Source of the DNA: a virus
Length of the DNA stretch: 64,000 bases
IMG/VR virus record: IMGVR_UViG_3300023174_000096
Location: 32,001 to 96,000 of that record
Strand: one strand, 5' to 3'
The notes under the pieces were generated by a model. The model searched no databases, was not told where the DNA came from, and saw nothing but the letters and a program-made list of their open reading frames with translations. The translations under genes were made by a program, and so were the position numbers. Shown here piece by piece: positions 17,793 through 44,914 of this stretch. Positions within the stretch are counted from its first letter, which is position 1; each line of letters begins with the position of its first letter.

Positions 17793-18512
17793 TCAGTGCC
17801 AGACGGAGAACTCGTACTTGTAGTTGATCTTGTTGGCCTTGAGCCAGTCGTCGAAGTCGTCCCAAGAGATGCCCTTCAGCGCGTCCGGGCTGGCCGTGAG
17901 CATCTGGTAGAACTTCCGAGCCGCCGTGGCGGACGACGACTTGATGATGGTGTAGTGCGGGTCCGACTGCTCAAAATCGCTGTTGGGCGAGTAGGACTTG
18001 AACTCCAGCCACTCGGCCTTCACCGAGAAGTTCTTGCCGTACACCGTGATGGGCTCGACGTTCTCGGGCACCACCGAGAGGTAGTTCACGAGGTCGTCGT
18101 ACCACTTCACGCCAGAGAGGTCTCGCATCGGGTCGTACCCCGGCGTGGCGTGGGCTCGCACGTCGGCAAGCACCTTCTCGCTGGTCATCGCGCCGAAGAT
18201 CTTGTCCTTGATCGTGTCGAACGAGTCCATCGCGGAAATCTTGCCGTAGTGGCGGATGAGGTTGATGGGCATCCACGCATCGAACTTCGTGGAGAAGTAG
18301 GGGTTCCGCAACTCGGACACGCGGAGCTTGCGCTTCCCCTTGGCCGGGAGCTCCTCCAGCTTGAACTCGTAGCGGTCCCACGTCAGACGCCACCCGTCAC
18401 CGACGAGGACACCTTCCATGGCTCCCGCCGTCTTGAGGATGGGCAGGAGGTGAGGGCGAAGGGTGGGTTGTTGATGGGCCAGACGGATCAGCTTGGAACG
18501 GAGTGTTGACAT
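17793..18512 (-). CDS. Leader-bearing hypothetical protein (putative internal head protein)
   Basis: Begins [29 protein letters not shown]|G. Confidence 0.75.
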
Positions 18513-18555
18513 GGGCATTCCTCTCACATCTCGCAGCTATAAAGAGACCAACGAC

Positions 18556-18804
18556 GTGTGGCATGTCTACGTCCTCACCAGCACCGTCCGGGCTGTCACC
18601 TACGTCGGCTGCACCAACGACGTGGGGCGCAGGGTGCGCCAGCACAACGGAGAACTCTCTGGGGGCGCGCGGTTCACCCAACGATGGCGACCGTGGGTGC
18701 TTGGGGTGGTGTACGGGCCGTTCGACGGGCGGGGTGATGCCCAGCGGGCCGAGAGGCTGGTGAAGCGCCTACGAGGCCCCGCGCGCCTACGATGGCGGGC
18801 GTAA
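18556..18804 (+). CDS. GIY-YIG nuclease (SLX1-like)
   Basis: VYVL...[23 protein letters not shown]...RPW; start codon uncertain. Confidence 0.85.
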
Positions 18805-18826
18805 CTACCCGTGGAAAGGAGCACCC

Positions 18827-19324
18827 ATGATGGGCGCTTTCAACGAGGTAGACGACATGTTCCGTGGAGTTCAGTACAACAAGTTCACGAGTGGGCAGAT
18901 CCGCGAGGCGATGAACCGCAAGGTCGAGGCGGTGCGAGCGAAGATCGAGGAGCGCCGGGGCCGCATCGACAAGATCACCCGCGAGAACGAGATCACCCCC
19001 GAGGCCCTGTCCGACCTCATCGTGCAGTACTCGCAGGACCAGCGCCGGGGCGGAGGGGCCAAGATGTCCTACTCGATCCCGAACAGCAACACTTCTTCTG
19101 GCAACCGGACCAAGGAGACGGTGGTGCCCGCTGGGGTGATCGCCAACCTCGTGACCGAGAAGGAGCTCGTCACCTCCGAGACGGCAGAGGTGAAGCGCCT
19201 CGACCTCATCCTCCGCAACCTCAAGGACGACCAGCCCTTCGTGGACGAGAAGACGGGGGAGCTCCGTTCGCGCGCCGTGATCCACACGCTGGACGACGCC
19301 GAGATCGAGTATCTCGGCTTCTAG
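18827..19324 (+). CDS. Hypothetical coiled-coil protein (165 aa)
   Basis: AGGAG RBS; genome-typical codon use. Confidence 0.75.
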   Translation: MMGAFNEVDDMFRGVQYNKFTSGQIREAMNRKVEAVRAKIEERRGRIDKITRENEITPEALSDLIVQYSQDQRRGGGAKMSYSIPNSNTSSGNRTKETVVPAGVIANLVTEKELVTSETAEVKRLDLILRNLKDDQPFVDEKTGELRSRAVIHTLDDAEIEYLGF

Positions 19325-19365
19325 CCTGTCAGTATCCTCGGCCTTCCAACGTCCAGAGGGGCGTA

Positions 19366-20556
19366 ATGAAGACCATGACCGCCGCCCTCCCCAATCCCGT
19401 GGTTCACTACGAGATGATCCGCAAAGACCCGCGCAACCCGCTGCGGGTGTTCCCCGAAGACATCAAGTCGAAGATCCTGCACGACCCCTTCAACAAGCAG
19501 GGGGACAACCCCCTGCCCGCGCAGACGGTCAGCGCCTACAGCACCACCTACAACATGATGCGGTCTACCGTCGCTTACGAGCGCGGAGGGCAGCAAGTGG
19601 TGGTGCTGGGGCCACGGATGCAGGAGGCGTTCGCCAACACCTCGCTCTCCGAGGTGAGTGCGGAGCACATCCGTTTCCCCTTCCCCTGCTTCTACCTCGC
19701 CACCCCGCAGTCCAAGCTCAAGGCGTGGGGCGGAAGTGACACCCTGTGGCACCGGGTCGAAGGTGCCTACGTCATGGAAGACCCCGCCGAGCCGGGGGTG
19801 ATGAGCGTCCTCATCTGGGGCGCGGCGAACGAGCGGTCGCAGTTTCCCACGGACGACGCGACGTTCTGGTTCTCCATGCGTCTGGGCCACGGCGGGACGG
19901 TGGACCTCGACGGCGACCTTGAGAAGCGCCTCGACTTGGCCGAGCTTCGCGAAGGCACCCTGCGGAACATCGAACTGGAGTCCGCCGTCACCCGCATGGA
20001 CCTCGACGCGCGGGTGAACGGGGTGCTGGACAACCGGGGCGCGAACATCAGTGACCGTCTCGCGAACATCCCTCAATCCGAGGAGCTCGCGCGGGAGGTC
20101 AAGGCCATAGTCAAGGCGTTCCTGCGGGTGGTGATCAACACCCTGCTGTACATCAACAGCGCGTCGTGTGAGACCAAGAGCGCCGACAACGATGGGAAGC
20201 GCCGCGAGCTAGAGACTGCGCTGGGGCGCAAGAAGCACAAGAACGGCAAGGACGCCAAGAAGCTCGCCCGCGACCTCGACGCCCTCCCCAAGTACCGGGT
20301 GACGTGGATCGGCCCGACCATCGAAACGAGCGCGGGCGGCGACACAGACCTCACGGGCACCCGCACCGTGAAGGGGCACATTCGCCGGGGCCACTGGCAT
20401 ACCTACCGGGTGGGGCCGCGAAAGACCGAGGCTGGCGAGAGGATCGACCCTGCGATGCGAAAGGCGTCGCTGAAGTGGGTCGCCCCGGTGTGGGTCGGCG
20501 GCGGGGTGCCCGAGGACAAGCCCCGCGTCTACGGGGTGCGCGAGCCCGTCACTTGA
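19366..20556 (+). CDS. Hypothetical phage protein with C-terminal HxRRGHW motif
   Basis: GHIRRGHWHTY...KWVAPVWVG; true start at ATG 19366, directly within GGGCGTAATG. Confidence 0.75.
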   Translation: MKTMTAALPNPVVHYEMIRKDPRNPLRVFPEDIKSKILHDPFNKQGDNPLPAQTVSAYSTTYNMMRSTVAYERGGQQVVVLGPRMQEAFANTSLSEVSAEHIRFPFPCFYLATPQSKLKAWGGSDTLWHRVEGAYVMEDPAEPGVMSVLIWGAANERSQFPTDDATFWFSMRLGHGGTVDLDGDLEKRLDLAELREGTLRNIELESAVTRMDLDARVNGVLDNRGANISDRLANIPQSEELAREVKAIVKAFLRVVINTLLYINSASCETKSADNDGKRRELETALGRKKHKNGKDAKKLARDLDALPKYRVTWIGPTIETSAGGDTDLTGTRTVKGHIRRGHWHTYRVGPRKTEAGERIDPAMRKASLKWVAPVWVGGGVPEDKPRVYGVREPVT

Positions 20557-21205
20557 TCGCGACGTAGGGGTTCTCCATGAGGTAGTAGTTCATCGGCAAC
20601 TGATAGAGGTTGCCGCCGAAGTCCAGAACAAAGTTCTGGCCCTTCACTTCCCGCACGGTCACCACGTCACCGGGGTTCAGCGTGAAACCGCTACGGTATG
20701 AGACGGGCTTCAGCATCGTCAGCAGCATCCCGGGCTTCAGCGGCTTGGCGTGTTGGACGCCCGCTTCCAGCATGACGAAGTACCGGGGGAAGTAGCTGCG
20801 GATGCTCTTCTCCAGTTGGTCGTGGCTGTCCGAAAGCCCCAGAGCGCGAGCCCACTCCGGGCGTTCGTAGAGGGGGATGCTGATCGCCACGTCCTCCTCG
20901 TACCAGTAGTAGCCGTTGGAGAACTCGGCCATCTTGGTAGCCGCAGCCGTGAGCATCTTCTGGGCTACGCCCTTCGCCACGGCCAGACCACCGTGGCCAG
21001 CCGTCCCGTACAGGCGAACTCCACGAGCCGCTTCCTTCCCGTACTGGGCAGGCCCCCAAGGGGTCCAAGGGGCAGAGCGGTCACCGTCGGGCCAACTCAA
21101 GGGGCCAGCGGCGACCTTCCCGTTGTCCAGCAGCGGGAGGAGGTGTGGGCGAAGGGCGGGCGTCTCATGTGCGAGACGAATCAGCTTGGTGCGAAGGGTG
21201 GTCAC
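20549..21205 (-). CDS. Leader-bearing protein with DUF7007-like domain and SH3-like tail
   Basis: Leader MTTLRTKLIRLAHETPALRPHLLPLL..KVA|A; TPWG..Q...TAGHGG...WYEED; AGGAG RBS. Confidence 0.75.
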   Translation of the reverse strand: MTTLRTKLIRLAHETPALRPHLLPLLDNGKVAAGPLSWPDGDRSAPWTPWGPAQYGKEAARGVRLYGTAGHGGLAVAKGVAQKMLTAAATKMAEFSNGYYWYEEDVAISIPLYERPEWARALGLSDSHDQLEKSIRSYFPRYFVMLEAGVQHAKPLKPGMLLTMLKPVSYRSGFTLNPGDVVTVREVKGQNFVLDFGGNLYQLPMNYYLMENPYVAIK

Positions 21206-21248
21206 GGTGAGGTCTCCTGCTTCTTGCTTTTGATAGACCCGTTAGCGA

Positions 21249-24200
21249 TCACGGGTTGATCTCGATTCCAACGAGGCCCCGAAGGGTGTCCGTCGCCGCC
21301 GTTTCGCCGCCTCCCACGAAGTTCAGTGCCTTGCCTACCCCGCCCGCATCGTTCTTGATGATGACCTTCACCAGCACCGGGCACTTGCCCTCGCCGTTGA
21401 TGAACAGCGCGGCAGGCGAGAGATTCACCGTCACGTCCGTGTAGCGAATCTGGGACACGGTGTCCGTCGCCACGGTGGAGGTCACAAGGCACCCCGCGCC
21501 GTCGAGGGCGATGTCCTGCTTCGACGGACCCGTGCCGTCTGCCCGCCCCGCGTCCATCCACGTCGTCAGCCCCGGCACCTTCACCATCACGGCCATGCCC
21601 GTAGCACCCGGCGCGGTGAGCGCGGTGTACTGGAAGTCCGTGAGCTCCACGCCCCACAGGCGGAAGGTCACCGTGGATAGGCCCGCGTTGGCCGCGTCCG
21701 CGTCGAACGCGCGGATGTATACCCGGTCGCCCGTGAGCCCCGAGTAGTCTGGCCCTACTGGGACATAGACCGAGGTGTAGTTCGTCTGCGGGTAGATGAG
21801 CACCCCCCGCGACGGGAACGGAGAAGTCAGACCTTCCGTGTAGTCAGGGTTGCGTGCGGGGAGCCCCGCCACCTGTAGGGCGTTTCCGAGATTTCCTGCC
21901 GCGTTGACCAACACCGACTTGTGGAGGTTCTGGAAGAACCACCCGGGGTAGTTGGGGTCGCCGTTCACCGGGCGCACGGGCACAGCGATGGGTGCGGGTC
22001 CGAAGGGAAGCCCCGGCCCTTGGAGTTGGGTTGCGTCGGCGGGAAAAGTGAAGTTGAGCGGGGTCCAGTTCTCTGGGTAGCGGTAGACCTCGTCCAAGAA
22101 CCGCTCCGATACGTCCTTGGGGGCATTGAGCGTGGCCCGAGTTACGTCGTCGGGATTGCCATACGGCACCAGCGCCGCCGTGTTGTCCTCCCGCATTGAG
22201 TGGAACAACACCGCATCGCCCGTGGTATTGGCGAGGGTGAAGCCCCGTGCAGGGCCACCCGTTCCGCCCGCGTAGGGGAGGGGGTAGCCCGTGACGCCGT
22301 CCACGTTCAGCAGCCGACGCACGAACAGCCGCGCCTTGGCGTCCGTGGTGAATGCCGGGGTGACCGCATCTCCCGAGAACCGGATGGAGTTCAGCACGTT
22401 CCCCGACGCCGTGAAGTTGTAGATCAGATGGTCTGTGGGCACAGGTGCGAAGGCGTCCGCCGAGGCAAGCGCCACGTCCGCGTAGCCAAACTCGATCCGC
22501 TGGCGACGGTACTCCCCGAGCCCGTTGAAGAACACCGTGAGCGCCGAAGAGATCCCTCCCACGGCAGGGTTCTCTGTGCCCTCGTAGCTGAACGAGGAGA
22601 GGGACAGGAAGGCCAAATTCTGATTGAGCGCGTACTTCCGAGAGTCGCCCGAGAGCGTGCCTCCCGTGGGAATCACGTCGTGCGAGCGGTAGCTGTCCGC
22701 GAAGACGTTGATCACCTCAAGGTCGAGCACGTTGATCCCGAAGGCCGGGTCGTTCGCCGTCGTGCGGTCGATGGGGACGTAGTATTCGACCCCCGAGTAG
22801 AAGGTCGTGTCGCCGTTGGTGACGTAGGTCACGTCCAAGGTGACGCTGGTGGGGGTGACCGTGCCGCTGTTGTCCTCGACGATTTCCGCGCGGTTCACGG
22901 GGTTCGCCACCGACGCTTCCGGTGACGTGGAGGCCGTGATCAAGTTCTCAAGGATGTCGTAGGGGAAGGCAGAGCCCGTCCATTGCACGAGGTTCACCGA
23001 GTACAACTGGTCGCTCGTCGGCACCACGCCATCCCGCACATACGCCTCGAAGTACGCTTCCTTCTTGAAGTGAACGAGGGCGTAGCTGTCGTCGGTGCGA
23101 GTGATTGCCGCCCCCGTCGCCAGCACGAAGCGGTGACGGTAGCGGGCGATCTGGAAGGCCCAGAAGTCCGCCGTGAAGTCGTCGTAGTCCCCAGCGGGGT
23201 CGAGCGTGACCACGCTGGCCGGGGCGATGGGCGTCGTGAACCGCCCCTTCTCAGCCGTGGGCGTGTAGATCAAGCCCGTCGTTGCCGAGTAGTCCTTGAG
23301 GTAGGGGAGGCGGTACGCGAAGAAGTTGCTCGCTGTGCCACCGCCAACATTGAACGAGAAACCCGGCAGCGGGACCACTGACCCAATCGCGTTCGCCGTC
23401 GCGCCGAAGATGGGCAGACCACCCGGTGCCGTCCCGGGAGAGAAACCCACCGCTGCGGGGTCCGTGAGCAGTCGCACCTGCCCCGCTGCGGGGTTGAAGA
23501 AGGGGTCTTCACCACCAATGCTGACCGTGGCCCCGAGGTGGATCTCGTCGAGGTTGTACTGCCCCGCCGCGCGACCCGGGAAGTTGTACGGGCTGATGAT
23601 CGCGTCCACCCCGCCCGCGCCGTTGACCAGCGTGTACGCACCGGGCGGGGCGGTGTCCGACAGGGAGATCGAGTTGCCCACGGTCCCCGTCGCAACGGGA
23701 ATGATCTTCACGGTGCCGCCACCTGTGGGGATGGCCACGAGGAGGGTCGGGAAGTACAGGTTGTTGAGGGCGACCGCGAGGCTCTCCGACGTGAAGACGT
23801 TCGATCCGAGAACTTGGAACTCGTAGGGGGTCGTCGGCGCGGCGACGGTCGCCGTGAAGGTCACGAGCCCGGGCGGTCCACCGGGAAGCCCCGTCAGATC
23901 GAGGGTGATGGTATACGGCGGAGCGGGGTTGGTGTTGTTCGTGATCAACGCCGAAGCGCGGGTGCCCCCCGAGGCTTCGACGAAGACCCCACCGGGCTCG
24001 CCGTCGCACCCGTTGTCGAGCACCCCCTTGCCGAGCAGAAGCGCCGCCACACAGCGGGCCTGAATGTCCGCGACGGACGCAGCGGGTCCGAAGTCAGGTT
24101 CGGTACCCGTGGGCCACTTCACCAGCGCGAGCACCCCACGGTCGGCGGGGGATACGATGCCCGACACCACCGCGTGAGGGTCCGCGATGGAGGTGAAAAT

Positions 24201-24776
24201 CCGCCACGTCGGATAACCAGTGCCCACCCCTCCCATCGACAGGGTGGCGAAGCCAGCGTGGACCTTGCCCTCACCGCCGCCCGAGTACAGACCGTTCACC
24301 ACGTTGAACGTCGGGTCCGTCGCGGGCTCGACGCCCGTGCCCGTCACTCCCGAGCCAGAAGCCGTGATGGGTGCCCTGTAGTAGTAGGGATACACGGCGC
24401 GGGCGTCTGCTGCCACGTTGCCCGTGAAAGGCAGGATGCCGTCCCAGAGCTTGAGGATGCCCCAATCGGGCACACCCGTGTTGGAGCTCCCAAGCCATGC
24501 CACGCCTTCACTGCCCACACCGCCCATTGGAGGAGGAATGAGCGCCGCGAGGTCATCGAGGGACACCTGTACGTTCACCCCCGAGTACCGCTCGTACAGG
24601 TTGAGCGTCGAGATCGCCGTCGCGGGGTGTGCGCCCGTGGGGTTCTCGACGTGCGCGTCGAGAGAGCTCGACGGAGCGCCAACGTCACCGGGAGTGAGAG
24701 ACGAGGGGCTGACCGAGCCGGGGGGCGCGAGCCCACCGCCCGTGAGAATTCCCAAGGGGTCGTCAATGCGCGGCAT
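21249..24776 (-). CDS. Virion structural protein (1175 aa)
   Basis: G/T/P-rich; AH...AHPATAI N-terminal motif; lies in the tail operon. Confidence 0.75.
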   Translation of the reverse strand: MPRIDDPLGILTGGGLAPPGSVSPSSLTPGDVGAPSSSLDAHVENPTGAHPATAISTLNLYERYSGVNVQVSLDDLAALIPPPMGGVGSEGVAWLGSSNTGVPDWGILKLWDGILPFTGNVAADARAVYPYYYRAPITASGSGVTGTGVEPATDPTFNVVNGLYSGGGEGKVHAGFATLSMGGVGTGYPTWRIFTSIADPHAVVSGIVSPADRGVLALVKWPTGTEPDFGPAASVADIQARCVAALLLGKGVLDNGCDGEPGGVFVEASGGTRASALITNNTNPAPPYTITLDLTGLPGGPPGLVTFTATVAAPTTPYEFQVLGSNVFTSESLAVALNNLYFPTLLVAIPTGGGTVKIIPVATGTVGNSISLSDTAPPGAYTLVNGAGGVDAIISPYNFPGRAAGQYNLDEIHLGATVSIGGEDPFFNPAAGQVRLLTDPAAVGFSPGTAPGGLPIFGATANAIGSVVPLPGFSFNVGGGTASNFFAYRLPYLKDYSATTGLIYTPTAEKGRFTTPIAPASVVTLDPAGDYDDFTADFWAFQIARYRHRFVLATGAAITRTDDSYALVHFKKEAYFEAYVRDGVVPTSDQLYSVNLVQWTGSAFPYDILENLITASTSPEASVANPVNRAEIVEDNSGTVTPTSVTLDVTYVTNGDTTFYSGVEYYVPIDRTTANDPAFGINVLDLEVINVFADSYRSHDVIPTGGTLSGDSRKYALNQNLAFLSLSSFSYEGTENPAVGGISSALTVFFNGLGEYRRQRIEFGYADVALASADAFAPVPTDHLIYNFTASGNVLNSIRFSGDAVTPAFTTDAKARLFVRRLLNVDGVTGYPLPYAGGTGGPARGFTLANTTGDAVLFHSMREDNTAALVPYGNPDDVTRATLNAPKDVSERFLDEVYRYPENWTPLNFTFPADATQLQGPGLPFGPAPIAVPVRPVNGDPNYPGWFFQNLHKSVLVNAAGNLGNALQVAGLPARNPDYTEGLTSPFPSRGVLIYPQTNYTSVYVPVGPDYSGLTGDRVYIRAFDADAANAGLSTVTFRLWGVELTDFQYTALTAPGATGMAVMVKVPGLTTWMDAGRADGTGPSKQDIALDGAGCLVTSTVATDTVSQIRYTDVTVNLSPAALFINGEGKCPVLVKVIIKNDAGGVGKALNFVGGGETAATDTLRGLVGIEINP

Positions 24777-28063: not shown

Positions 28064-29398
28064 CTACAGCGACTTCGCCGCGAGGTCTGCCAAGGGGCTG
28101 CGGACGCCCTCACCAAGGTAGACGGACCCTGCGAGGGGGCTGTCCCGAGTCATCTTCGCGGCGTGTACCAACCCGTTGCTGAAGGCATCCAGAAACGGGT
28201 CGTCGATCTGCGAGGGGTCGCCACACAGGACCACCTTGGTCCCGTTCGCAGCGCGAGACACCACGGTCTTCACCTCGTGGGGGGTGGCGTTCTGGATCTC
28301 GTCGAAGAGCAGGAACGCCCGAGGGATCGACCGCCCACGGATCGAGTGCATGGGCTGGATCTCCACCTGTCCCGATTGGACCAGTTGCTCCCAGTTCTTC
28401 TCCTTGACGCCCCGGTGCTTGTTCTCCTTCGCGTCGGTGGTGAGCAACTGGTCGAGGTTGTCGAAGAAGCTCATCATCCACGGGTGGAGCTTGTCGCTCT
28501 CCGAGCCCGGGAGGTACCCGAGGTCACGGCCCATCGGGACCACGGGCTTCGACAGGATGATCCGGTCGTAGACGCGATCTAGCTGCTGGAGGCCCGCTTG
28601 GAGGGCCATGAGGGTCTTGCCTGTCCCCGCTGCGCCGAGCAGCACCACCAAGTGGACCTTGGGGTCGAACAAGAGGTCGAGCGCCATGCGCTGCCCGTCG
28701 TTCCGGGCGTCGAACTTCAGTCCTTTCTGGCGAGACACTGGACGTAGTGCAGTGCCCGTCCAGCGGAACAGGCGGTGCGTGCCGTCCCCCTCCAAGAACT
28801 TGATGAACTCGTTGGGCTTCACCCCGGCGAGGTTCACATTTTCGATTACATCCGGCGGGTCGGCTCCGTAGAGAGGCTGAAGGGCATCCGGGTTGGGCAA
28901 CGACCGCTCATAGACGCCAGAGGGCACCTCGTTGGGGTCCACCCGGTCTTTCCGGTAGTCCTCTGCCTTCACCCCCTTGGCAGCAGCGAGGATGCGGAGG
29001 TTCACGTCCTTGGTGACCAGCACCACGGTTTTGTTCGTGAACCGCTCTTGGAGCTTCAGCGCACTCCCGAGGATGAGCAGGTCCATCTTGCGGGAGAGAG
29101 TTGTGTTTTGCAGACTCTCAAAGTGCTCGTCCTGCCCGACGACGTAGAACACGCTCCCGGTCTTGGGGTCAGCGATCCCATCGGGGCTGTTGACATCTCC
29201 CTGTGAGACGATCCGGGCGATGCGCCGCGAGGCCACCCGCGCAGAGCTCGCCACCTCTCGGCGCTGCGACACCTTGAGGTCGTCGAGCTCCATCACCACG
29301 AAGATGGGGATGGCCACCGACGTGTCTCGGAAGGATCGCAGGGCTTCGGGGTCGTGGACGAGGACGGACGTGTCGAGGACGTACAGCTTGTTGTTCAC
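28064..29398 (-). CDS. phoH: PIN-PhoH (PhoH2/YlaK-like) ATPase
   Basis: PIN motifs YVLDTSVL...ELDDLK...LVTKDVNLRI; PhoH motifs GAAGTGKT, LGYLPG, RGRS, DEIQN, GDPSQID. Confidence 0.92.
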   Translation of the reverse strand: MNNKLYVLDTSVLVHDPEALRSFRDTSVAIPIFVVMELDDLKVSQRREVASSARVASRRIARIVSQGDVNSPDGIADPKTGSVFYVVGQDEHFESLQNTTLSRKMDLLILGSALKLQERFTNKTVVLVTKDVNLRILAAAKGVKAEDYRKDRVDPNEVPSGVYERSLPNPDALQPLYGADPPDVIENVNLAGVKPNEFIKFLEGDGTHRLFRWTGTALRPVSRQKGLKFDARNDGQRMALDLLFDPKVHLVVLLGAAGTGKTLMALQAGLQQLDRVYDRIILSKPVVPMGRDLGYLPGSESDKLHPWMMSFFDNLDQLLTTDAKENKHRGVKEKNWEQLVQSGQVEIQPMHSIRGRSIPRAFLLFDEIQNATPHEVKTVVSRAANGTKVVLCGDPSQIDDPFLDAFSNGLVHAAKMTRDSPLAGSVYLGEGVRSPLADLAAKSL

Positions 29399-30501
29399 AC
29401 GCCCTCCAAGAGGGGTGCGAGGCTAGGTAGGCCGAAAATGTGGGGGTGGGTCTTCAAGTTCCTACCGGGGGTTTCCCATCGGTCGATCACCGACGAATAG
29501 CGGGAAGAGAGTGCTTCCCACAAAGGGTCACGCATAGACAAGACCGTGACGGGCTGGCCCGTCTCCCGCACGAAGGCGTCGATCTTGGCTTGGGTTGCGA
29601 CCGTACCGTCCTCGTGCCTCCACCCCTTGAGCTCTACCCATCCGGCGGGAATCCCGTCCGGGTGATGGGCCAGTAGGTAGAAGTCGGGGGTGTAGTAGCT
29701 GCCGTCCGAGAGATGGAACAGCTTGGGCTCGTAGTTGTAAGGCACCGCAAGATGAAGGAGCACCCGGGCAAAATTCGCCTCGAACGTGGACCGACAGTAG
29801 TGCGGGATGCCCGCACGGAATCCGCAGATGCCACGCCCACCACCTTGTGGTGCGAGGGTGCCGTTACGGATGCGGGACTCAAGGCTCTTGCGACGGGTCT
29901 CTGGGTCCCTCATCCCAATCATCGCACCGTCAGAGAATCGAAGGCGAAGGGCGTCAGATAGCTTTTCTGAATGGTCGGGTCTGGAACGAATTTCTGCAAG
30001 GATGACCCGTCCTCTGCGGCCAAGAGCCGCGCGATATTCTGGAGTGAGGTTATGGGACTTCCCCTTCCCACCCCTTGAGACGGCTTCTCGATGAGCTTCC
30101 GTTAGCGGCTTCCCGCGCCATGCCCCAGCGGCCTCGACCAGACGGGCGGACTGCATCTTCCGCTCGTCCTCACTGGACCACCTTGCCTTCGCCTTCTCGG
30201 CCATCTTCTGCTTGCAAGCGTCCGAGCGAGTGCGAGCTCCCGGGGCGTCCGTGAGGGCATCGGGATAGGCGGCGAGGTAGTCATCACGGGTCATCCCGTG
30301 AGCCGAGGCCAAGTGCGGTGTCAGCATTCGTCGAGACACCCCGCACAAGAGGCAGGAGACACGGTCGGTGGCTGGACTCCCCCGCTTCTGGAGGGACGGA
30401 GCCTTCCGGCACCCGTCGCACTTCACGTTGCGTGTCGCGGGTTTGTACCCCTCAACCTCGACACCACACGCCTTGCACCGGGGCATTTTGGCAGCATCCA
30501 T
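29395..30501 (-). mobile_element. Free-standing homing endonuclease (Zn fingers + NUMOD3-like repeats + PD-(D/E)xK nuclease)
   Basis: CKAC/CDGC/CLLC..HL...H; PLTEAHREAVS and SDACKQKMAE repeats; RSTFEANFA..YEP..YTPDF...VELKG; atypical codon use. Confidence 0.75.
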
Positions 30502-31255: not shown

Positions 31256-31561
31256 TCAGACGGGAGGTTTGCCGCGAAAGGCACGGATGCTGGGGGCGTT
31301 GGTTTCCACGACCTCCTTCGACCCGTCTTCCCACTGGATGAGAGACTTGAAGGGCTTCGCGGAGGTCATCTTGAGGATCGTCCCGTAGACCGATCCGGTT
31401 CCCTTGGCGTCCGACTTGACCACAGAATACCCGACCTTCCAAGGTGAGGTGGCACCCTTCCCCGGAATAGCCGCTTCTTTGAGGAGGGGCAGGAGGTGCG
31501 GACGAAGTTCGGGCTGTTGGTGCGCCAGCCGGATGACCTTGGAACGGAGAGTGTTGCTCAT
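31256..31561 (-). CDS. Leader-bearing small protein with SH3/KOW-like barrel
   Basis: [30 protein letters not shown]|A...WKVGYSV...IQWEDG. Confidence 0.75.
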   Translation of the reverse strand: MSNTLRSKVIRLAHQQPELRPHLLPLLKEAAIPGKGATSPWKVGYSVVKSDAKGTGSVYGTILKMTSAKPFKSLIQWEDGSKEVVETNAPSIRAFRGKPPV

Positions 31562-31606: not shown

Positions 31607-34600
31607 TCAGCCCCACACCTGTTGCTGGCTCCCGTCCACCCAGACGGTGACCACTCCCGGTGCCGCGCCCGTTCGCAGGACGAAGAGGGTCTGGCGGAAG
31701 GTCGTGCCCTCGTCGGTGCCCCGCACCACGCCATCGGAGGGACCCACGGCGTAGAGCATCCGGGGCTCTGCGTTGGTGGTGGTGGGTGACCCTTGGCCCG
31801 AGAACGGGATCACCGTCCCGGTCCCCGTGATGAACGAGTACGTCCCGAGGGGGCCACCATCGAAGCCGTTGCCCGACGCGAGCAGGGCGTAGCGGTAGGT
31901 GCCGGGGCCGCGCCCACGTCTGACCGCGCCCATGCCCGCGTAGTTGTCGTTGAGGTAGCTGCCCGCGAAGGCGAACTCGGTCGCGCCCCAAGAACCGTTC
32001 GGGCCGGGACCGCCCTCGCAGTACGAAGACAACCGCCCTCTCTGCCCGCCGTCCTCGATCTGAAAGAACTCCAGCCGCTCGTACAGGTACTCCGGGTCGT
32101 CATCGAAGCGCCGCACGAGGTACTGGTCGCGGAAGGCGTAGTCGGGGTCGAGCGGGACGGCAGTCCCCACGGGCACTGGGAGAGCGGGCGTCGGCCCACC
32201 GTCGCCCGAGGCCGTCGAGGCGATATCCGTGGGGAGGGTCACCGTGGGCGGCGCGCTCCCAGCTTGGGACTGCTGGAACGTGGGCGTCCCCTCGTTCAAG
32301 ATCGTCTGCGACTCAGGGAAGGGCTGAGATTGCAGGTAGGTATTGGTGACGGGCTTTGCCGGGGCAAAGACCACGTTCACCGGGTGGTTCCGGGTGGGCA
32401 AAGCCACCGAGAGCGTGAGCTCTTGGCTGTCCTTGTTGAACCGCCAGAGGTTGAACGGGAGGGTCGCCCCGTCCACTCGCACGGCAAACACCCTATCCGC
32501 GAAGATGTGACAGGGACGGAGGGACACCCGCTGCGGCGTGACGCTGGCGACCACCACTTCTTGGGGCGTCGTGTCCTTGAGGTAGTCGCCGCTGTTGACC
32601 ACGTTCCAGCGGTTCAGCACCATCCCCTGCGGCGCGCTGTAGTCCACGGACGTGTTGGTGAACACACGGTAGCGGACATCATCCCAGACGGAGAGCACCG
32701 AGCCCGAGGGGTTGAGCGGTCCGAAGAGGGCCGTCCCAAACTTCTCCGTGGGGGTCACCCTTGGGAGTCGCCCGTACTCGACGCGCACCCAACCCGCCGT
32801 GGGGTCCAACGACTGCGTGGCGAAGTCGTTCGCGTAACCGGGCGGGGCAGGGATGTCCGGGCGAATGAGGGTCGCGCCGAAGGTCGGGTCCATGAACAGC
32901 CGCACCCAGCACCGCACCGACCAATCCATCGAGGTGATGGTGGAGGAGGGATCACTGTTCGGGACGTTCAGCCCGTCCGTGCGGGGGAGCGCCCAGTTGT
33001 TGATGTCCGCCTCGTCGCCGCCCAGAAAGAGGCCCATCGTGCGGAAGAGGTTGGGAATCCCTTCCTCCGTCCCGCCGTAGCACACGCTCCGAAGGGACGC
33101 GCTGAACGACCCACCCGCCGGGGCGTCATGGAGAACTTGCACCTGCCCCGCGCCAGCCCCGAAGGCCCCGATGGGCACCGTGGCTTGGAGGGTGCCCTCG
33201 ATGAAGAGGTCCACCGTGGCCGCGCCCACGTTGTAGACGAGTCGGTAGGTCCGTGCTGCACCATCGTCCCACGGGATGGTTACAATCACCACCGCCCCTC
33301 CGTTGGGTGCAGGAGAGAGGACGATGCACCCCGCACGGAAGTCGAGGTACACGTCGTTGCCGCCGAAGGTGCCCGCGAAGGTGAGCCCGCATCGACCCGC
33401 GCCGTCCAAGGTGAAGTCCGTGAGGGCCACACGGAACTCCAAGAAGCGCCCGACGCACGGTGAGTAGTAGGGCACCAGCGTGCGGTAGAACGACCAAGCG
33501 TTGTTCCCGTCCCCCGTCAGGAGCATCTCCGGGCCGTTCGGGAAAGCACCCCCGGCGTTCCCTTCCCACCCTTGTTGGTGGTAGGGCACCGAGCCCACGA
33601 GGGACACCGTGTCGAGACGGTGGATGCGCTTGCCGAGCGCGCCTTGGTTCTCGTACCGGAGGGTCGCCGCCCGAGCCTCACGGTGGGTGTCCCGCATCAC
33701 CAACGTGCTCCCGCCCACACCCGCCGTGTCTCGCGCGACGGTGAACCTCCCGTCGAGGGCCGAGACGCGCCGCCCGGTAAGGAAGGGGTCCGTGTAGCCG
33801 TAGCCGTAGTAGGTGCCGAGGCCCGCGTCGGCGGGCGTGCTGGTGATCGCCACCGAGGCACCCGAGGTGCGAGTGTCCCCGAAGGGCGTGGCGAGATACC
33901 AATCCCCGTGCTCCGGGTCCGTGGCCGTGCCCGTGAAGCCCGTGGGCACCATGCGCCCCGCGCTCACCGACGTGACCGTGATGCTGGCCCCGGGAGAGCC
34001 ACTGGAGTTCGTGGTGATGGTGACGAGCGCCCCGGCGCTGGTGGCCGACAGGTAGTTGGGCGCGAGCACACTGGCGTTGATCGCCGCTGCCAAGTTCTCT
34101 GCGGTCGCGGTCAGGGACGACCCAATCGCGAAGTTGGTCCCCGCCGTGAGCGTCACCACAGGGCCGAGCACTGGTGCCGCCGAGGCATTGAGGGTGACCG
34201 TGTCCCCCGCGAGCGGGAGCGCCGTGAGCCGCACCGTGGCCGTGGCCCACTGCGAGTCCACCACCGTCCCCCGCGCGTAGGTGTACGCGCCGTCAGGGGT
34301 GCTGGCCACCCGCACGAAGTCCCACGTCGTGTCGTTGGTCGCCGCCCGGTCGATGGAGCCCCAGACCATGCGGCCAAAGCCCTCTGGGAGGATGTCGGGA
34401 CCGAGGTAAGCGGGCGAGGCCAAGATCCCGGTGCCGACCGAGGTGGTCGAGCCCGAGGCACCGCCAAACACCACGGTGACCGTCTGGCTCCGGGTGTTCG
34501 CGTACATCCGCCATGTGGAAAGACCCTCGTCCCAAGGGGTGTCGAAGTACAGGGTCACGTCCCGGTTGCCGAAGAGTTCGGGATTCGCCGGGAACACGGG

Positions 34601-40200: not shown

Positions 40201-40647
40201 GGCCGCGTAGAAGTTGTACCCGACGATGCGGCTATCAGTGAGCCCCTCGACCGTCACCTTCACCGAGCCGTCGAGGCGCTCGATGGTCACGCCCGTGGGA
40301 GGGAGGAACACGTCGGCCTCCTCCGGGGGGAGGAGACGGACCACCACCGTCGCCGGGACGCTGCGCCCGCCCGCGAGGTTGACCGCCCGGACTTGGATCG
40401 TGTTGTCGCCCGAGAAGAGTTCCAGCCCGGTGGGGTACGCGCTGGGGTTCGGGACGGTGAACCCCGTGCCCACGAAGGCCACGAGCGTCGGGTCAGCCGT
40501 GAAGGGTTGCCCGAAGAGAGACACCTCCACGTCCACGGTGTCGTCGGGGAGGGTGCCCGTGAAGAACCGGGTGGTCTGCGTGGTCGAGAACGTGGAGGTC
40601 TCCCGCAACACGTTGTCGGGACCAAGGAACTGCACAGAGGTCGCCAT
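37276..40647 (-). CDS. Baseplate J/gp6-like wedge protein (1123 aa)
   Basis: PGSVVRD, DKIAANFGVIR...AVGEVRF, IPLGT, GGANEETNAQLAAR, GKVDVW. Confidence 0.85.
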   Translation of the reverse strand: MATSVQFLGPDNVLRETSTFSTTQTTRFFTGTLPDDTVDVEVSLFGQPFTADPTLVAFVGTGFTVPNPSAYPTGLELFSGDNTIQVRAVNLAGGRSVPATVVVRLLPPEEADVFLPPTGVTIERLDGSVKVTVEGLTDSRIVGYNFYAATTQGGGADGYRIINVNRVTTGTPVQNSTELYALTADAVAQTATPLYYRAKIDQENSSEVVLSTDVDSRVELPSDITTIRTNVSVSSVTTINYFSFTHVRTANALSNPATVFSGVFASTPSTDLLYYVATAIYYDPVIKVEYESYFSSEVAGAPAQVRQQINGLTAVTRQQMLESAIATIYRQNPDIAVQPGSVVRDIFLDPFTTEAERLRLLLDYVYRASSFDTLLLVDDPTGSGVSNPPASSAYKTALAAAFFYSNVDDVQSVIDGSFDKIAANFGVIRRAGTPAVGEVRFFTLSPPTRTITIPLGTVILGGGVQFRTSRSAVMDVALLASYYNPSTREYSVTVPVRALTVGTVTNVGPRQLTGSNVYGMAVTNDAATFGGANEETNAQLAARARTALASVDTGTTQGMAQVAAGVPGTIQNVVVRAGDPLMQRDYDTTLKRHLGGKVDVWARGVRTVTVNDIFAFTYERRNDVQFVVIGSPLNYVFRVVSEEVTPDNPLAQMLDYPTYGLGLKNVTTGETFDLTNVTYLNFNTIQLDITIPQPPVTLTDIVLGDFRFRLGNRHVFTRQPVSGILNVTGEVIGPVDISLYTLVRPNSPLGLGYSTRAGDYLQINQSADPTVVSPSGNLIPVVDEPHVVTGFYTEFLYNLGAETLSIVVKNQSGTVTYKGPYDPSGSPDYTIIEGSSTVAAGIRRTEGSAIADGDTVTISYSYYENFVVAYQTNLVTSVLQQDLDDMAHATSDVLAKQAVQIPVDITATVILKRGFDRTNVDIAIRNNLQYLIGTLKLGDPMRRSDVIAEIDGTAGVSYVVVPLTKMVRQAGYQIVRNDLSTATFGDSFRVNAWSNGQYAVWLILQELDAPTLTGGGPPNEFRGVFQDDAELTLQVTAPQNLGMRPNQAYIIGADGQVIPGYGTGTGSVRNRVLVSLPVGDAPSNHTYWCTYITATDLGDKDIDPNSMEYLVLGDVTFTYDNDR

Positions 40648-41747
40648 CAGTAGTTCCCCAAGGACAGGCGGTTGGTTCCCGGCAGCGCGAACGTACCGGG
40701 GGCCGAGTACACGATGGAAATGGTCACGGGTTCAGACGAGTAGTTCCGCACGTCTACCTCGATGAGGAAGGTCGTGGGGTCGTTGGGGGACGGGGCCACG
40801 GCGATGTTGTCCACGGAGAAGAGCCTCTCCTTGGCCGTGACCCGCTGGTACTTGGACTGCGCGTTCTGGAGGTTCTGGAGGTTCGTGAGGGCTTGGCTCA
40901 CCGACTGACGGATGCCAATCGCCGTGCCCCCCAGCACCTTGCTCCCGATACGCGAGACGAGGTCAGACCCATACCAAGTGTGGTAGATGTTCGACCCGAG
41001 CTCCGTCAGGATCATCTTGAGGCACATCTGGTAGAGCAGGTTCTCGTCCTGCACCACCAGCGCCTCGCCCTGTGGGTCGAAGCGGTAGTCGTTCTCGACC
41101 TCCGTCGCCCTGCAACGGAGGCACAGGTACGGGGCCACAGGATACGTCACCGTGAAGAACGCTTCCTGCTTGACGACGGAGTCGAACCCGATGTAGTAAC
41201 CGAGAGAATCCACGGCGTCTTCGGGGTTGACCGCCGTGCGAGAGTAGAGCCTCCACGGGGGGATCACCGTTTTGCCACGGTCGCCGCTCTGCTGGTCGAA
41301 GCCCAAAGGCTCCAGCGCCGAGCCCGTGAGTTGAATCCTCGACGTGGGGCCGGGAGTCGCTGTGTCCGTCAGGGTGATGTACCCGTTGGGGGAGGACACC
41401 ACCACGAGCCCCCTCACTGCTGCGGTGAGGGTGGCAGACACCTGCGCCGCCGACAGGTAGCCCGACGAGAAGTTCACCGTCGCCGCGCCCGCCCCCGTGG
41501 TGAGCACCAGCGTGCGGGTAGCCGTCGTGATCTTGTAGGGCTCGCGGCGGTAGGACCGCATCGTCGCCGGGGTCACCAGCCCCGTGAAGGGGGAGACAAT
41601 GGCGTCGTCGTTGACGCGGACTTGCACCAGCGTCGGTCCAGAGATGGGCTTGGCCGTGTACAGCGTGCGTCGGTCGGTGCCGAGAGAGACCCTCTCCTCA
41701 CCGATGACGTGGCTACAAGTGAAGGCAAGCTGTACGTCGCGCGACAT
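40647..41747 (-). CDS. Baseplate wedge subunit with gp25-like C-terminal domain
   Basis: LYQMCLKMILTELGSNIYHTWYGSDL; directly upstream of the baseplate J-like gene. Confidence 0.75.
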   Translation of the reverse strand: MSRDVQLAFTCSHVIGEERVSLGTDRRTLYTAKPISGPTLVQVRVNDDAIVSPFTGLVTPATMRSYRREPYKITTATRTLVLTTGAGAATVNFSSGYLSAAQVSATLTAAVRGLVVVSSPNGYITLTDTATPGPTSRIQLTGSALEPLGFDQQSGDRGKTVIPPWRLYSRTAVNPEDAVDSLGYYIGFDSVVKQEAFFTVTYPVAPYLCLRCRATEVENDYRFDPQGEALVVQDENLLYQMCLKMILTELGSNIYHTWYGSDLVSRIGSKVLGGTAIGIRQSVSQALTNLQNLQNAQSKYQRVTAKERLFSVDNIAVAPSPNDPTTFLIEVDVRNYSSEPVTISIVYSAPGTFALPGTNRLSLGNY

Positions 41748-41783
41748 GGTTCACCGTGTGGTCGCGATAGCGGGGAAACCGCT

Positions 41784-42680
41784 TCAACCAATGGCCGTCC
41801 ACGCCTCCTCGCCGTTGGGGGCGTCGTCGAGGAGCATGGGCTGCGCCGGGTTCGGACCCGTCTGGCGCGGGCGACTGAAGTCCCGCGACCCGTCGTTCAA
41901 GGTGTCCGGGTAGAACGCCGTGTCGATCTGGTCCACGATGGCCGAGACGTTGTGCGTGATCGCGTACTCGCCGTTGTCCGTCCACTGCAACCCCGGCACA
42001 GCCCCTCCCACGGCTTGGGGGAGGAGCTCGTCGCGCTCGATGGTGAGTTGCTCGCGGAGGTCGCAGAGCTTGATGATCCGGGCCTCCAAGTCGTTCCGCA
42101 GCGTTCGGATTTCTTGGGTGACCCACCCGCGCATGGCGTGGACCGTCCGGGTCATGTCCGCCGACTGCTGGGTGTAGCTCACGGCGTTGCCAAATCTCCG
42201 TGGGGGGTACCGCCACAGGGGGAGCCACCCGCCGATGTAGATGCCGCCCGTCATGGGGTCCGTGCTCCCGGCGCTCGCGATGCCACCGTAAGGCTGCGTC
42301 TCTTGGACGTTGCTGGCCGGGGTCGCCTGTGGGTTGTCGAGGTCCGTCTGCGACTGCTCCGTCGCGTCCTCGACCACCTGCACCGCGTTGGGCGTCAGGA
42401 ACATGGAGATGTCGAAGGGGTTACCCCCCATCGCGATGTACGCGCGGAGGAGCTTCTCGATGCTGGTGTTGGGGGTGACATCCAGCCCGATGCGGCGCTC
42501 CGTCATCGCGTTGGGATTGCTGGCGTTTCGCTCGTAGAGGATGCGGATTTCTCCAATGCGGGCGAGCTCCGCGTTGATCGTCGTGACCCGCGCCATCACG
42601 TCCTGACGCTGGTTGAGGATGAAGCGTCGGAACTCACGATAGGCCCCGGCTCGGAAAAATCCTGTCCATCCGAAACTCAT
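41784..42680 (-). CDS. Hypothetical (probably virion) protein (298 aa)
   Basis: GGAGG RBS; first gene of the baseplate block. Confidence 0.7.
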   Translation of the reverse strand: MSFGWTGFFRAGAYREFRRFILNQRQDVMARVTTINAELARIGEIRILYERNASNPNAMTERRIGLDVTPNTSIEKLLRAYIAMGGNPFDISMFLTPNAVQVVEDATEQSQTDLDNPQATPASNVQETQPYGGIASAGSTDPMTGGIYIGGWLPLWRYPPRRFGNAVSYTQQSADMTRTVHAMRGWVTQEIRTLRNDLEARIIKLCDLREQLTIERDELLPQAVGGAVPGLQWTDNGEYAITHNVSAIVDQIDTAFYPDTLNDGSRDFSRPRQTGPNPAQPMLLDDAPNGEEAWTAIG

Positions 42681-42811
42681 GGCCTAACCTCCGAAGTTGT
42701 TGATGTTTTCTCACGACGAAGACGATGAGCCTCGATTGCAGACGGGCGCATCTTCTCCTTGGTTTCAGGAGTGTTCGTTCGACGGGGACGTGCCTGTGCT
42801 GCTTTTCGCAT
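42677..42811 (-). pseudogene. NUMOD3-like homing-endonuclease remnant or 44-aa uORF
   Basis: MRKAAQARPRRTNTPETKEKMRPSA...; ATGA-coupled to the next gene. Confidence 0.4.
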
Positions 42812-42818
42812 TCGTTCC

Positions 42819-43112
42819 CTACTCTAGCGGGGGGATAGACGAACTGAAGGCTCGCTCCCGGTCGAGCATCTGCACGATGGCCCGAGCTCGCGCCCGCCGG
42901 AAGTTCACCACCTCACCGAAGAGGTAGAGGGCGAAGGCCGCTCCCAAGGTGTACACCCCGTAGACGGCCTTGTCGGGCTCGTGAGCGACGGGGGCAACGA
43001 GCGCCACGGTTGCTCCGATCATGGCCAAGAAAAAGGCAGGGACGCCCAAGTAGCTGCGTCCGAGGTTGGCACGGGTGCGGAGGTTTAGCTCCTCTTTGTC
43101 CGTCAGGTCCAT
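42819..43112 (-). CDS. Small two-TM membrane protein (97 aa)
   Basis: Two hydrophobic segments. Confidence 0.6.
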   Translation of the reverse strand: MDLTDKEELNLRTRANLGRSYLGVPAFFLAMIGATVALVAPVAHEPDKAVYGVYTLGAAFALYLFGEVVNFRRARARAIVQMLDRERAFSSSIPPLE

Positions 43113-43175
43113 CTCATCACCCTACGCGAGCGTAATCGGTTACAGGAGCACCCTTGGCTCCGTTGAGGTTTTACG

Positions 43176-43619
43176 ATGGCCACCATCATCCCGACAGAGG
43201 GGGAGCTCCTTGAGGTCCCCGCCCCCGGCAACTCCACGGAGGCCCAGACCGTTCTGGGCGCGCTTGGGGTCGTTGCACACGGAGCCCCGGATGGCTCATC
43301 GTGGTGGGTTCTCGACCCCCCTCTCGTGGGCGACACGGCCCCCAACCACCGGGCCACCCGGTTCTACGCCAACCGTGTGGGGGGTACAGCGCCACGGACA
43401 CTGTACGGCAAGGTGCTGTACATGAGCGCCGACGAGACCAAGGCCCTCAACGGCGCGAAGCCCGCTGAGGAGATGGTGCCGATCCGTGGGCGCACCTACG
43501 AGGTGCGGGGCCTCCTCAAGGCGATTGGTGCCCGGTGGTTCGCCGCCGAGAAGGTCTGGAAGATCGCCAAGGCCAACCTCGCGGAGGCCGAAGAGATCGT
43601 GAGGCGCGGGTGCGGGTGA
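43176..43619 (+). CDS. Hypothetical protein (C-terminal DUF5710-like)
   Basis: TYEVRGLLKAIGARW....KVW. Confidence 0.65.
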   Translation: MATIIPTEGELLEVPAPGNSTEAQTVLGALGVVAHGAPDGSSWWVLDPPLVGDTAPNHRATRFYANRVGGTAPRTLYGKVLYMSADETKALNGAKPAEEMVPIRGRTYEVRGLLKAIGARWFAAEKVWKIAKANLAEAEEIVRRGCG

Positions 43620-43758
43620 AGAGGAAGCCCAAGGGGCCTCCCCGGTGTGCCCTCAAGGGCTGCGTGGGGTGGGGCGGCACTTGCGTGTGCCCACGCATCT
43701 CGTGGGCTCCCACAGAGAAATCCACGGGGGTCGGCGTCAGGGCTTGGCTGGGCTTCCG

Positions 43759-43917
43759 TCAGTCGCGTCGGAAGTAGTCGTAGAGCACCCTGCCCATGTC
43801 CCGGTCACAGAGGTAGCAACGGATGCCCTTGGGAGTGATCCGCAGCCACTTGTGCTCGCAGGGGTCTTCGACGAGGGATTCCCAGCGATCCTCTTGGTCA
43901 GGCTCCTCGTCCTGCAT
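43759..43917 (-). CDS. Small Zn-binding protein (52 aa; not in ORF track)
   Basis: MQDEEPDQEDRWESLVEDPCEHKW...RCYLCDRD; CTATC-N-TAG motif upstream. Confidence 0.5.
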   Translation of the reverse strand: MQDEEPDQEDRWESLVEDPCEHKWLRITPKGIRCYLCDRDMGRVLYDYFRRD

Positions 43918-43984
43918 ACCCTACGGGGACGATAGACGCTCTGTAACCGTCTTCACGAGGGGGTAGCATCGCAGAGGAGAACCG

Positions 43985-44536
43985 ATGACTTTGACCGTGA
44001 TTTGCGGACCCATGTTCGCAGAGAAGTCCACCACCCTCTACCGCTACGTCTCACGCGCCCTGCGCTCCAAAAAGCGCGTGGATGTGGTCGTGCCCACGGT
44101 GGACACCCGCAGCAAGGGACAAGTCGTCACCCACTCCGGGCTCACCCTTGAATCGCTGGGAGTGACGCCGAGAACGGTGGCCACGTCGTCGGACCTGTAC
44201 CGGGCGATGCCCACGCCCGCGCCCGACCTGATGGTGATCGAAGAAGCCCAGTTCTTCGACATCGACCTCCCGCTGTGGGTCGGGAAGCTCGTCGAGCGGG
44301 GTGTTCACGTCGTCGCGGCGGGGCTCGACCTCACCAGCGAGGGCGGACCCTTCGGCCCGATGGGGCACCTGATGTGCCTCGCGGACCGGGTCGAGAAGCT
44401 CACGGCGATCTGCGCGTGCGGTGCGGAGGCGACCCGGACGATGTGCAGGGTGCGGAAGGACGGCGCGGTGCTGGTGGGCGGTGGCGGTGAGTACGTCCCG
44501 GCGTGCCTACCGTGCTGGATGAAGCGCCCGCGCTAG
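43985..44536 (+). CDS. tdk: Thymidine kinase (TK1-type)
   Basis: GPMFAEKST, EEAQFF, AGLD...PFG, KLTAIC.CG, and Y.PAC..C lasso motif; GAGGAG RBS. Confidence 0.92.
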   Translation: MTLTVICGPMFAEKSTTLYRYVSRALRSKKRVDVVVPTVDTRSKGQVVTHSGLTLESLGVTPRTVATSSDLYRAMPTPAPDLMVIEEAQFFDIDLPLWVGKLVERGVHVVAAGLDLTSEGGPFGPMGHLMCLADRVEKLTAICACGAEATRTMCRVRKDGAVLVGGGGEYVPACLPCWMKRPR

Positions 44537-44539
44537 TCG

Positions 44540-44914
44540 TTAGCGGGCGAGTTTCGTCAGAGCCTCAAAGGCTTCTTGCATCGGACGGCTCTGCGAGCGA
44601 CGGCAGTCCATCAGGCTGTGTTGGACCTTGTCAAGGATCTTGACCAAGAAGTCATGACCCTGCCCGGGGTTCTGTTCGGCCCCGTCGAGGACGTGGGCGA
44701 ACGCAAGGCGCGCGTTTTCTTCAGCCATCCGCAGGTAGGCGATGGCGTCGTTCATGGCTTCCTTCGCCGCCCCGTAATCCGACTTGCTCGAATCGACCGA
44801 CTCGAAGACCATCGGTCCCGCCGTCTTGGTGAGGAGGGGCATGAGGTGCGAACGGAGCTCCGGGTTGGTGTGAGCCAGCCGGATGATCTTGGAACGGAGT
44901 GCTTGATCGCTCAT
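44540..44914 (-). CDS. Leader-bearing helical protein
   Basis: MSDQALRSKIIRLAHTNPELRSHLMPLLTKTA|G. Confidence 0.75.
   Translation of the reverse strand: MSDQALRSKIIRLAHTNPELRSHLMPLLTKTAGPMVFESVDSSKSDYGAAKEAMNDAIAYLRMAEENARLAFAHVLDGAEQNPGQGHDFLVKILDKVQHSLMDCRRSQSRPMQEAFEALTKLAR

Follow-up and report, generated by a model that had tools for sequence, protein, structure and literature searches.

A conserved peptide module on unrelated proteins of a huge-phage clade, and its possible role as a prohead-docking tag

Encapsulin cargo-loading peptides are short and portable, and dock inside an HK97-fold shell via flexible linkers. In herpesviruses, a helical peptide at the scaffold terminus binds the major capsid protein (MCP) and is severed at x-A|S by assemblin, a protease of the prohead-protease fold family. 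The coat-binding element of the P22 scaffolding protein is a basic C-terminal helix-turn-helix. In phage T4, a short peptide, the capsid targeting sequence (CTS), is carried by the unrelated anti-host internal proteins IPI-III and Alt and directs them into the scaffolding core of the prohead (PMC3012670, PMC5694885); it is removed by the prohead protease gp21, which cuts at L/I-x-E (PMC5694885). Fusions of 2H and RelA/SpoT domains to the head anchors MuF and portal have been reported, in predicted co-injected effector/polyvalent proteins (PMC5512222). Here we describe a peptide module of ~28 residues which is carried by unrelated proteins encoded in a 64,000-nucleotide stretch of viral DNA (hereafter the window, positions 32,001 to 96,000 of the IMG/VR record IMGVR_UViG_3300023174_000096). 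The window is part of a 105.5 kb contig, estimated to be 24% complete, from a huge contractile-tailed phage.

The module is a family-wide feature of one clade of huge phages; it is position-independent, phage-restricted and under purifying selection. Regarding its role, we give a probability of about 45% to the reading that it is a prohead-docking tag for effector-like cargo, comparable to the T4 CTS, with an adjacent protease junction. Its consensus is LRxKxIRLAHxxPxLRxHLLPLL in the window and [ST]-L-R-x-K-h-I-R-L-A-[HYF]-x-N-P-E-L-R-x-x-L-L-P-L-L in the clade, and over 275 modules the positions L4, R5, I9, R10, L11, A12, [HYF]13, P16, L18, R19, L22, L23, P24, L25 and L26 are near-invariant. 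The original prediction, made from the window, described the element as an N-terminal leader on four unrelated proteins. Translation of both strands recovers the four peptides exactly where they had been placed, on the minus strand; translation of the plus strand gives nonsense. The copies and their cargo are as follows.

18426..18512, minus strand: module copy A, N-terminus of a 239-aa protein (gene 17793-18512), no family match
17793..18425, minus strand: cargo A, ~210 aa
21110..21205, minus strand: module copy B, M/VTTLRTKLIRLAHETPALRPHLLPLLDNGKVA, N-terminus of a 218-aa protein (gene 20549-21205, GTG start)
20549..21109, minus strand: cargo B, DUF7007 domain (PF22653, E 1.2e-15)
31472..31561, minus strand: module copy C, N-terminus of a 101-aa protein (gene 31256-31561)
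31256..31471, minus strand: cargo C, ~70 aa, no family assigned; one 101-aa homologue cluster in metagenomes (P0064)
44819..44914, minus strand: module copy D, MSDQALRSKIIRLAHTNPELRSHLMPLLTKTA, N-terminus of a 124-aa protein (gene 44540-44914)
44540..44818, minus strand: cargo D, ~95 aa, no family assigned (Pfam, PHROGs)
G000:C1:19475-20044 (L149:976-1545), minus strand, 12 kb before the window start: fifth copy, C-terminus of a 2H-SAK phosphoesterase

The conservation acts on the peptide. Over the 23-codon core, the copies share 61–83% of their nucleotides in pairwise comparisons, the proportion of synonymous differences (pS) is 0.23–0.83, that of non-synonymous differences (pN) is 0.09–0.23, and dN/dS is about 0.1–0.6. 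Synonymous differences near saturation together with low non-synonymous differences show that selection acts on the peptide and that the copies are not a DNA repeat. The original prediction had reached the same conclusion from the codons of the IRLAH segment, which it quoted exactly. Once the module is removed, the cargo parts have no detectable mutual similarity (BLASTP, best E 0.6). The explanation by a simple paralogue family therefore fails, and the leaders do sit on unrelated proteins. A direct reading of the peptides also confirms that the similarity ends at K-x-A.

The module does not correspond to a described signal. No Pfam-A or PHROGs family covers residues 1–30 of the four window module proteins at E<=1, and none recurs over the module in 141 module proteins; a known domain with a role unrelated to targeting, which might have explained the leader otherwise, was thus not matched in Pfam or PHROG. 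The hydrophobic h-region of Sec signals and the twin-arginine motif of Tat signals are absent from the peptides, as had been proposed: a charged residue occurs every 2–4 positions, there is no RR motif, and C-terminal and internal copies exist. The proteins do not fit the leaders of ribosomally synthesized and post-translationally modified peptides (RiPPs) either, because the cargo is long (64–1,238 aa) and includes folded enzymes. A literature search for the motif string found no paper with the motif. No description of the module was thus found in curated families or in the literature; by analogy, its nearest functional kin would be the T4 CTS.

Two parts of the original prediction had to be widened. 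A leader profile run against the 105.5 kb contig gives exactly five matches at E<=4e-17 (the next best is at 0.08), and a four-sequence profile searched against 1.84 billion metagenomic cluster representatives matches 3,054 proteins at E<=1e-3 and 322 at <=1e-10, many of which have 2–6 copies. The module is thus not restricted to four proteins. The N-terminal position holds for the four window copies and is not general: the fifth copy is the only non-N-terminal module in the source contig, and modules of other viral open reading frames (ORFs) are also C-terminal, internal or in multiple copies. An unbiased census covered 132 distinct module ORFs from viral loci: about 70% have a single N-terminal module (75, plus 17 with a Met directly before the module), 9% have it at the C-terminus, about 11% are truly internal and 11% are multi-copy. 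These proteins are 64–1,238 aa long, with a median of 217 aa.

The module is carried by large viral contigs, up to 485 kb. Among 185,579 prokaryotic species genomes only four marginal matches were found, three of them on short contigs of metagenome-assembled genomes. Near-complete genomes of the same MCP lineage have 18, 15, 11, 3, 1 and 0 copies. The only deposited relative is LR745208.1, an unannotated 485 kb genome of an uncultured phage whose baseplate protein shares 61% amino-acid identity; a literature search for LR745208 gave nothing relevant. It encodes 11 modules, ten straight after the start codon and one internal, and no multi-module protein. Its internal-module protein was considered as an orthologue of the 2H-SAK protein of our contig and rejected on comparison.

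A Pfam domain is absent from 120 of the 141 module proteins scanned; the others have RelA/SpoT (2), DUF7717 (2), pentapeptide repeat, DUF7007, DUF2958, WGR or LRV domains. The cargo of the source contig comprises DUF7007, the 2H-SAK phosphoesterase and three proteins without an assigned family. Cargo A gave no match in Pfam, PHROG and ESM Atlas searches. DUF7007 is common in viruses and, in other proteins, is fused to N6-methylase/Eco57I-type proteins. The 2H-SAK assignment of the fifth copy's cargo is based on PF22547 (E 8e-17) and the motifs HVTL and HITV. This protein, with its C-terminal module, is a candidate RNA-repair or anti-signalling effector; a PDB sequence search with it returned nothing.

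A natural two-module protein was modelled with AlphaFold2 (AF2) from a 12-row alignment. Both modules are predicted as helix-kink-helix (residues 3–16/18–31 and 93–111/113–119) with a predicted local distance difference test (pLDDT) score of ~70, in agreement with the helix-Pro-helix shape expected from the peptides. In the model, the linker is disordered and no compact fold is seen (predicted template modelling score, pTM, 0.33). The module is basic, with R5, R10 and R19 conserved in addition to K7 and H13, and amphipathic. The model fits a peptide that would fold on a partner rather than a stable domain. A predicted complex of the MCP with the module scored 0.11 against a mark of 0.32, controls not having been run, and neither supports nor opposes binding.

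The sequence directly after the module has the consensus K-[KE]-A-[AG], and that directly before internal and C-terminal modules K-[DE]-A-[STA]. [KR]xA occurs in 166 of 248 downstream 5-mers (67%) and in 74 of 170 upstream 6-mers (44%), versus a background of 3.4–4.5% in the rest of the same proteins. The upstream motif is found only where polypeptide precedes the module, N-terminal copies beginning M-[ST]-x-L-R; a junction therefore fits better than an integral part of the fold. [KR]xA[AGS] is 10–20 fold enriched at the module flanks and is also present in the scaffold, in p211 (a protein of the head gene cluster, see below) and in the N-arm of the MCP. Indeed, all 54 distinct scaffold homologues have [KR][TVE]A[AS]|S..DLSKLWESAPDVSK[IVF]FG, with the site directly before the conserved C-terminal tail, 11 sites of the [KR]xA[AGS] type are found in the 422-aa scaffold and five in the 211-aa p211, and the MCP N-arm has an invariant K25-L-A-A-S29, compared to a genome-wide rate of 0.23 per 100 aa. 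K-x-A had been seen as the boundary where similarity stops, which it is; the motif itself recurs on both flanks and in head proteins, and for this reason it is probably a processing site. By analogy with other head-maturation proteases, [KR]-x-A is most simply read as the specificity of the clade's own enzyme.

In LR745208.1, the head genes follow the order portal, TopoIB/HAD-SAK, p211, p193, homing endonuclease, p221, a 474-aa protease, an acidic scaffold of 422 aa, a module gene encoding 134 aa, a protein of 228 aa and an HK97-family MCP (291 aa; phrog_2522/PF25209). In proteins with more than one module, a recurrent layout is [module]-KEA|-[F-x-P-x-x-I-G...P-[YWF]-x-x-G-x-F-T-Q-E...D-K-Q]-KxA|S-[module], and this second module is followed by KEAG|-[E-L-P-P-A-L + charged tail]. 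In at least 15 of the multi-module proteins, the middle segment shows homology to p211 (phmmer E 2.5e-14 to 1e-9), and the motif G-E-L-P-P-A-L is common to the multi-module proteins and the scaffold. Because of these two likenesses, the multi-module protein of other lineages is, as judged from its sequence, a putative head-core or scaffold-like protein capped by modules; no other observation links the module as strongly to head morphogenesis. The module gene between scaffold and MCP in LR745208.1, and a short motif likeness of the module to the protease C-tail and the scaffold (see below), are weaker leads in the same direction. PHROG annotation of the neighbours of the multi-module gene clusters gave nothing informative, and no relatives of P0008 were found on viral contigs. 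Residues ~60–75 of a multi-module metagenomic protein, P0007 (LTQPLRQRRDYG), closely resemble MCP residues 29–40 (MTQPLRTRRDYM), and this N-terminal stretch may be a mimic of the MCP N-arm on a scaffold-like protein.

Other features of the head genes are as follows. The 291-aa MCP (L065:6001-6873) is 87–100% identical in 2,094 proteins and 491 IMG/VR contigs of up to 618 kb; the adjoining proteases are 32–60% identical and the scaffolds 40–70%, so that the capsid protein appears unusually frozen. Selfish elements abound in the head module (L063, LR745208.1:384000-408000, and L145): head genes are separated by a GIY-YIG homing endonuclease, and the MCP is followed by a LAGLIDADG/methylase/CGNR ORF of 1229 aa. 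In a relative, the protease ORF has grown to 1371 aa and the portal ORF is enlarged, both intein-like in appearance. The gene with TopoIB and HAD-SAK domains, located between those of the portal and the protease, is fused with p211 in a 1523-aa ORF of G002. p211 (L063:19541-20176, minus strand) and p221 (17417-18082, minus strand) have a common N-domain of ~45 aa, LDN[LI]A.LFQ..H.SLGI..KVAMDFA.RCDLLSD, followed by K[KT]A[GS]; this domain was considered as a second portable leader and rejected, as only two copies were found.

In the prohead-docking reading, the module, a basic helix-kink-helix which probably folds on binding, would dock late in infection onto an interior component of the prohead (the scaffold core, the capsid protein or the protease). 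The head-maturation protease would then cut at the adjacent [KR]-x-A|[AGS] and free the cargo inside the shell, and the cargo (2H-SAK phosphoesterase, DUF7007, RelA/SpoT and pentapeptide proteins) would be delivered with the DNA as early effectors. The multi-module proteins, with their p211-like segment and charged spacers, might act as multivalent auxiliary scaffold or core proteins. In its broadest form, which we put forward tentatively and at rather less than even odds, the docking module with its [KR]-x-A|[AGS] junction, at either terminus or internal, would mark the whole set of proteins that are co-packaged and co-injected with the DNA, the multi-module proteins being auxiliary scaffolds.

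Several observations weigh against this role in the head. A module gene lies between scaffold and MCP in only two of 80 MCP loci, both from the same phage (the 485 kb relative); the idea that module genes occupy a scaffold slot upstream of the MCP was rejected, since the arrangement is not kept in the 78 other loci. Near the MCP, modules are about as dense as in the genome on average, with no enrichment beside the head module, and the multi-module gene clusters sit away from head modules, among unannotated genes. Of two genomes that have a ~90% identical MCP and also share the scaffold and the protease, one, 100% complete, lacks the module and the other, 92% complete, almost lacks it, which makes the system optional. 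No cultured relative that carries the module was found among deposited sequences. The C-tail of the protease, conserved across the clade including the module-free genome ([KR]-T-[LM]-[IV]-R-L-A-[KS]-L-L), and the K-C-I-R-I-A-Q conserved in the scaffold (helix KCIRIAQAML) both resemble I9-R10-L11-A12 of the module. Homology is not supported: hhalign aligns only 5–6 columns (P 0.005–0.026, probability <10%), which makes this a resemblance of motifs. Moreover, K-x-A could be a helix-capping sequence instead of a cleavage site. [KR]xA[AGS] is not enriched in two large ORFs of the window, of 1289 aa (5 versus 3.0 expected) and 559 aa (4 versus 1.3), and site density does not support the idea that these are polyproteins.

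An unlikely alternative is that the module docks to a hub outside the prohead, such as part of the tail or ejectosome, nucleic acid, the membrane or a host protein, and co-localises varied phage effectors in the infected cell, K-x-A being a helix-capping or linker sequence. The basic and amphipathic character of the module would suit such a hub, and so would the location of the window module genes among genes of the tail/baseplate and of replication instead of those of the head, that of module gene clusters outside head modules, and the presence of 0 to 18 copies among genomes with nearly identical head genes, as for an accessory or host receptor. However, the strict invariance of R5, R19, A12, P16 and P24 points to a specific protein partner rather than to the membrane or DNA, and no Pfam DNA-binding or membrane-targeting family is matched at E<=1. 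The junction motif common to the scaffold tail, p211 and the MCP N-arm, and the homology of multi-module proteins to a head-module gene, also speak for the head. No AAA+ translocase co-varies with the module, and the more specific idea of a tag for an AAA+/BCS1-like head translocase was rejected for lack of phyletic support.

That the module is a homotypic sticker, so that modules bind each other and multi-module proteins build up a network or condensate, be it a scaffold core or a viral factory, with single-module proteins as clients, seems to us rather improbable. Multi-module proteins do have 2–5 modules joined by K/E/D-rich disordered linkers, tandem modules ~5 residues apart recur, the two halves of the module are alike (LRxxhhxLh), and its conserved hydrophobic face is typical of helix-bundle formers. 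On the other hand, only ~11% of the module ORFs are multi-copy, and the complete 485 kb relative encodes 11 single-module proteins and no multi-module protein, which means that a multivalent hub is not required. The two-module AF2 model gave no confident compact arrangement (pTM 0.33), a weak argument as contacts were not reported. Finally, we regard it as very improbable that the module has no targeting role and is a remnant of shuffled paralogues, a recombination handle at the 5' ends of genes or a DNA/RNA regulatory element. Module genes often form arrays of 4–5 consecutive genes (L153, L207), as for local duplication and shuffling. This explanation is largely refuted by the conservation of the peptide while synonymous sites are near saturation; C-terminal and internal copies, unrelated cargo parts and near-invariant residues across thousands of clusters also contradict it.

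The window encodes Baseplate_J, PolA and PhoH/PIN, together with a sheath initiator and, in one large ORF, a nucleotidyltransferase domain; no capsid gene was found in the 105.5 kb contig. A Shine-Dalgarno-like GAGG/AGGAG lies 5–10 nt upstream of each of the four window module genes. A Ros/MucR zinc-finger domain is present in a 368-aa protein (29395-30501, minus strand) whose gene adjoins that of a PIN+PhoH ATPase (28064-29398, minus strand), both in the interval from module gene B to module gene C. The 1289-aa ORF (44956-48825, minus strand) has an AAT-like Ntn hydrolase and a PolyA_pol nucleotidyltransferase head domain, and the 559-aa ORF (50879-52558, minus strand) has a DUF5872-like N-terminus; both start MDR[LF] and resemble polyvalent effector proteins. 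A TAAC[CG]G[GT]TCTATC box occurs at 21237, 24819, 48859 and 52578 (minus strand), 17–43 nt upstream of module gene B and of the 1175-aa, 1289-aa multidomain and 559-aa ORFs. It may be a shared phage promoter, in a small sample (16 TCTAT[TC] sites in the whole contig).

What is known of huge phages (>200 kb) comes almost entirely from metagenomes, and most of their genes have no assigned function. If the module is a head tag, it offers a simple rule by which to list, from sequence, the proteins that these phages bring into the cell, the more than 3,000 marked protein clusters make a catalogue of candidate anti-defence or host-takeover effectors, the principle of the T4 CTS is extended to HK97-type huge phages in a position-independent and potentially multivalent form, and a testable specificity, [KR]-x-A|[AGS], is proposed for a prohead protease not studied so far. 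If it marks the whole co-packaged set, this set would include hundreds to thousands of effector families without known function, the injected proteome of uncultivated huge phages would be readable from sequence, and the module would be reusable as a cargo-loading tag. Even if the head reading is wrong, a peptide so conserved and widespread still marks a protein-recruitment hub.

Like the T4 CTS, the module is a conserved tag next to a short motif on unrelated, effector-like cargo, cleavage and packaging being inferred here from sequence. It has no sequence similarity to the CTS, which is 10–20 residues long and strictly N-terminal, whereas the module has ~28 residues and also occurs at the C-terminus, internally or in 2–5 copies; the candidate site is [KR]-x-A|[AGS] rather than L/I-x-E. 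The head systems also differ, gp23/gp21 in T4 and an HK97-family MCP in this clade, and no match to the Gp23 family was found in the 105.5 kb contig or the 485 kb relative. As in herpesviruses, a candidate site, [KR]-x-A-[AS], directly precedes the conserved C-terminal tail of the clade scaffold, and this motif is also found on the flanks of the module. The module also shares with the P22 and herpesvirus tails the form of a short basic terminal helix-kink-helix (in the AF2 model) with R5, R10 and R19 conserved. It differs in being on cargo and not on the clade's own scaffold, whose acidic tail (DLSKLWESAPDVSKIFG) has no sequence relation to the basic module.

Encapsulin peptides resemble the module in their occurrence at either terminus of unrelated cargo and in their flexible linkers. 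Here, however, the setting is that of a tailed huge phage, which has a portal, a protease, a scaffold, a baseplate and a sheath initiator but no encapsulin shell gene; the GSL-type motifs of encapsulin peptides are unrelated to the module, and multi-copy forms and flanking protease-like sites are not encapsulin features. The polyvalent proteins fused to MuF or portal bear the same effector domains (2H phosphoesterase, RelA/SpoT) on a head-entry element (Iyer et al. 2017, PMC5512222), but MuF is a folded head domain of ~100+ residues, and the module is a 28-residue peptide without similarity to it in Pfam. By analogy, the module therefore appears functionally most like the T4 CTS, with features of encapsulin peptides and scaffold tails, while by sequence and context it is a member of none of these systems.

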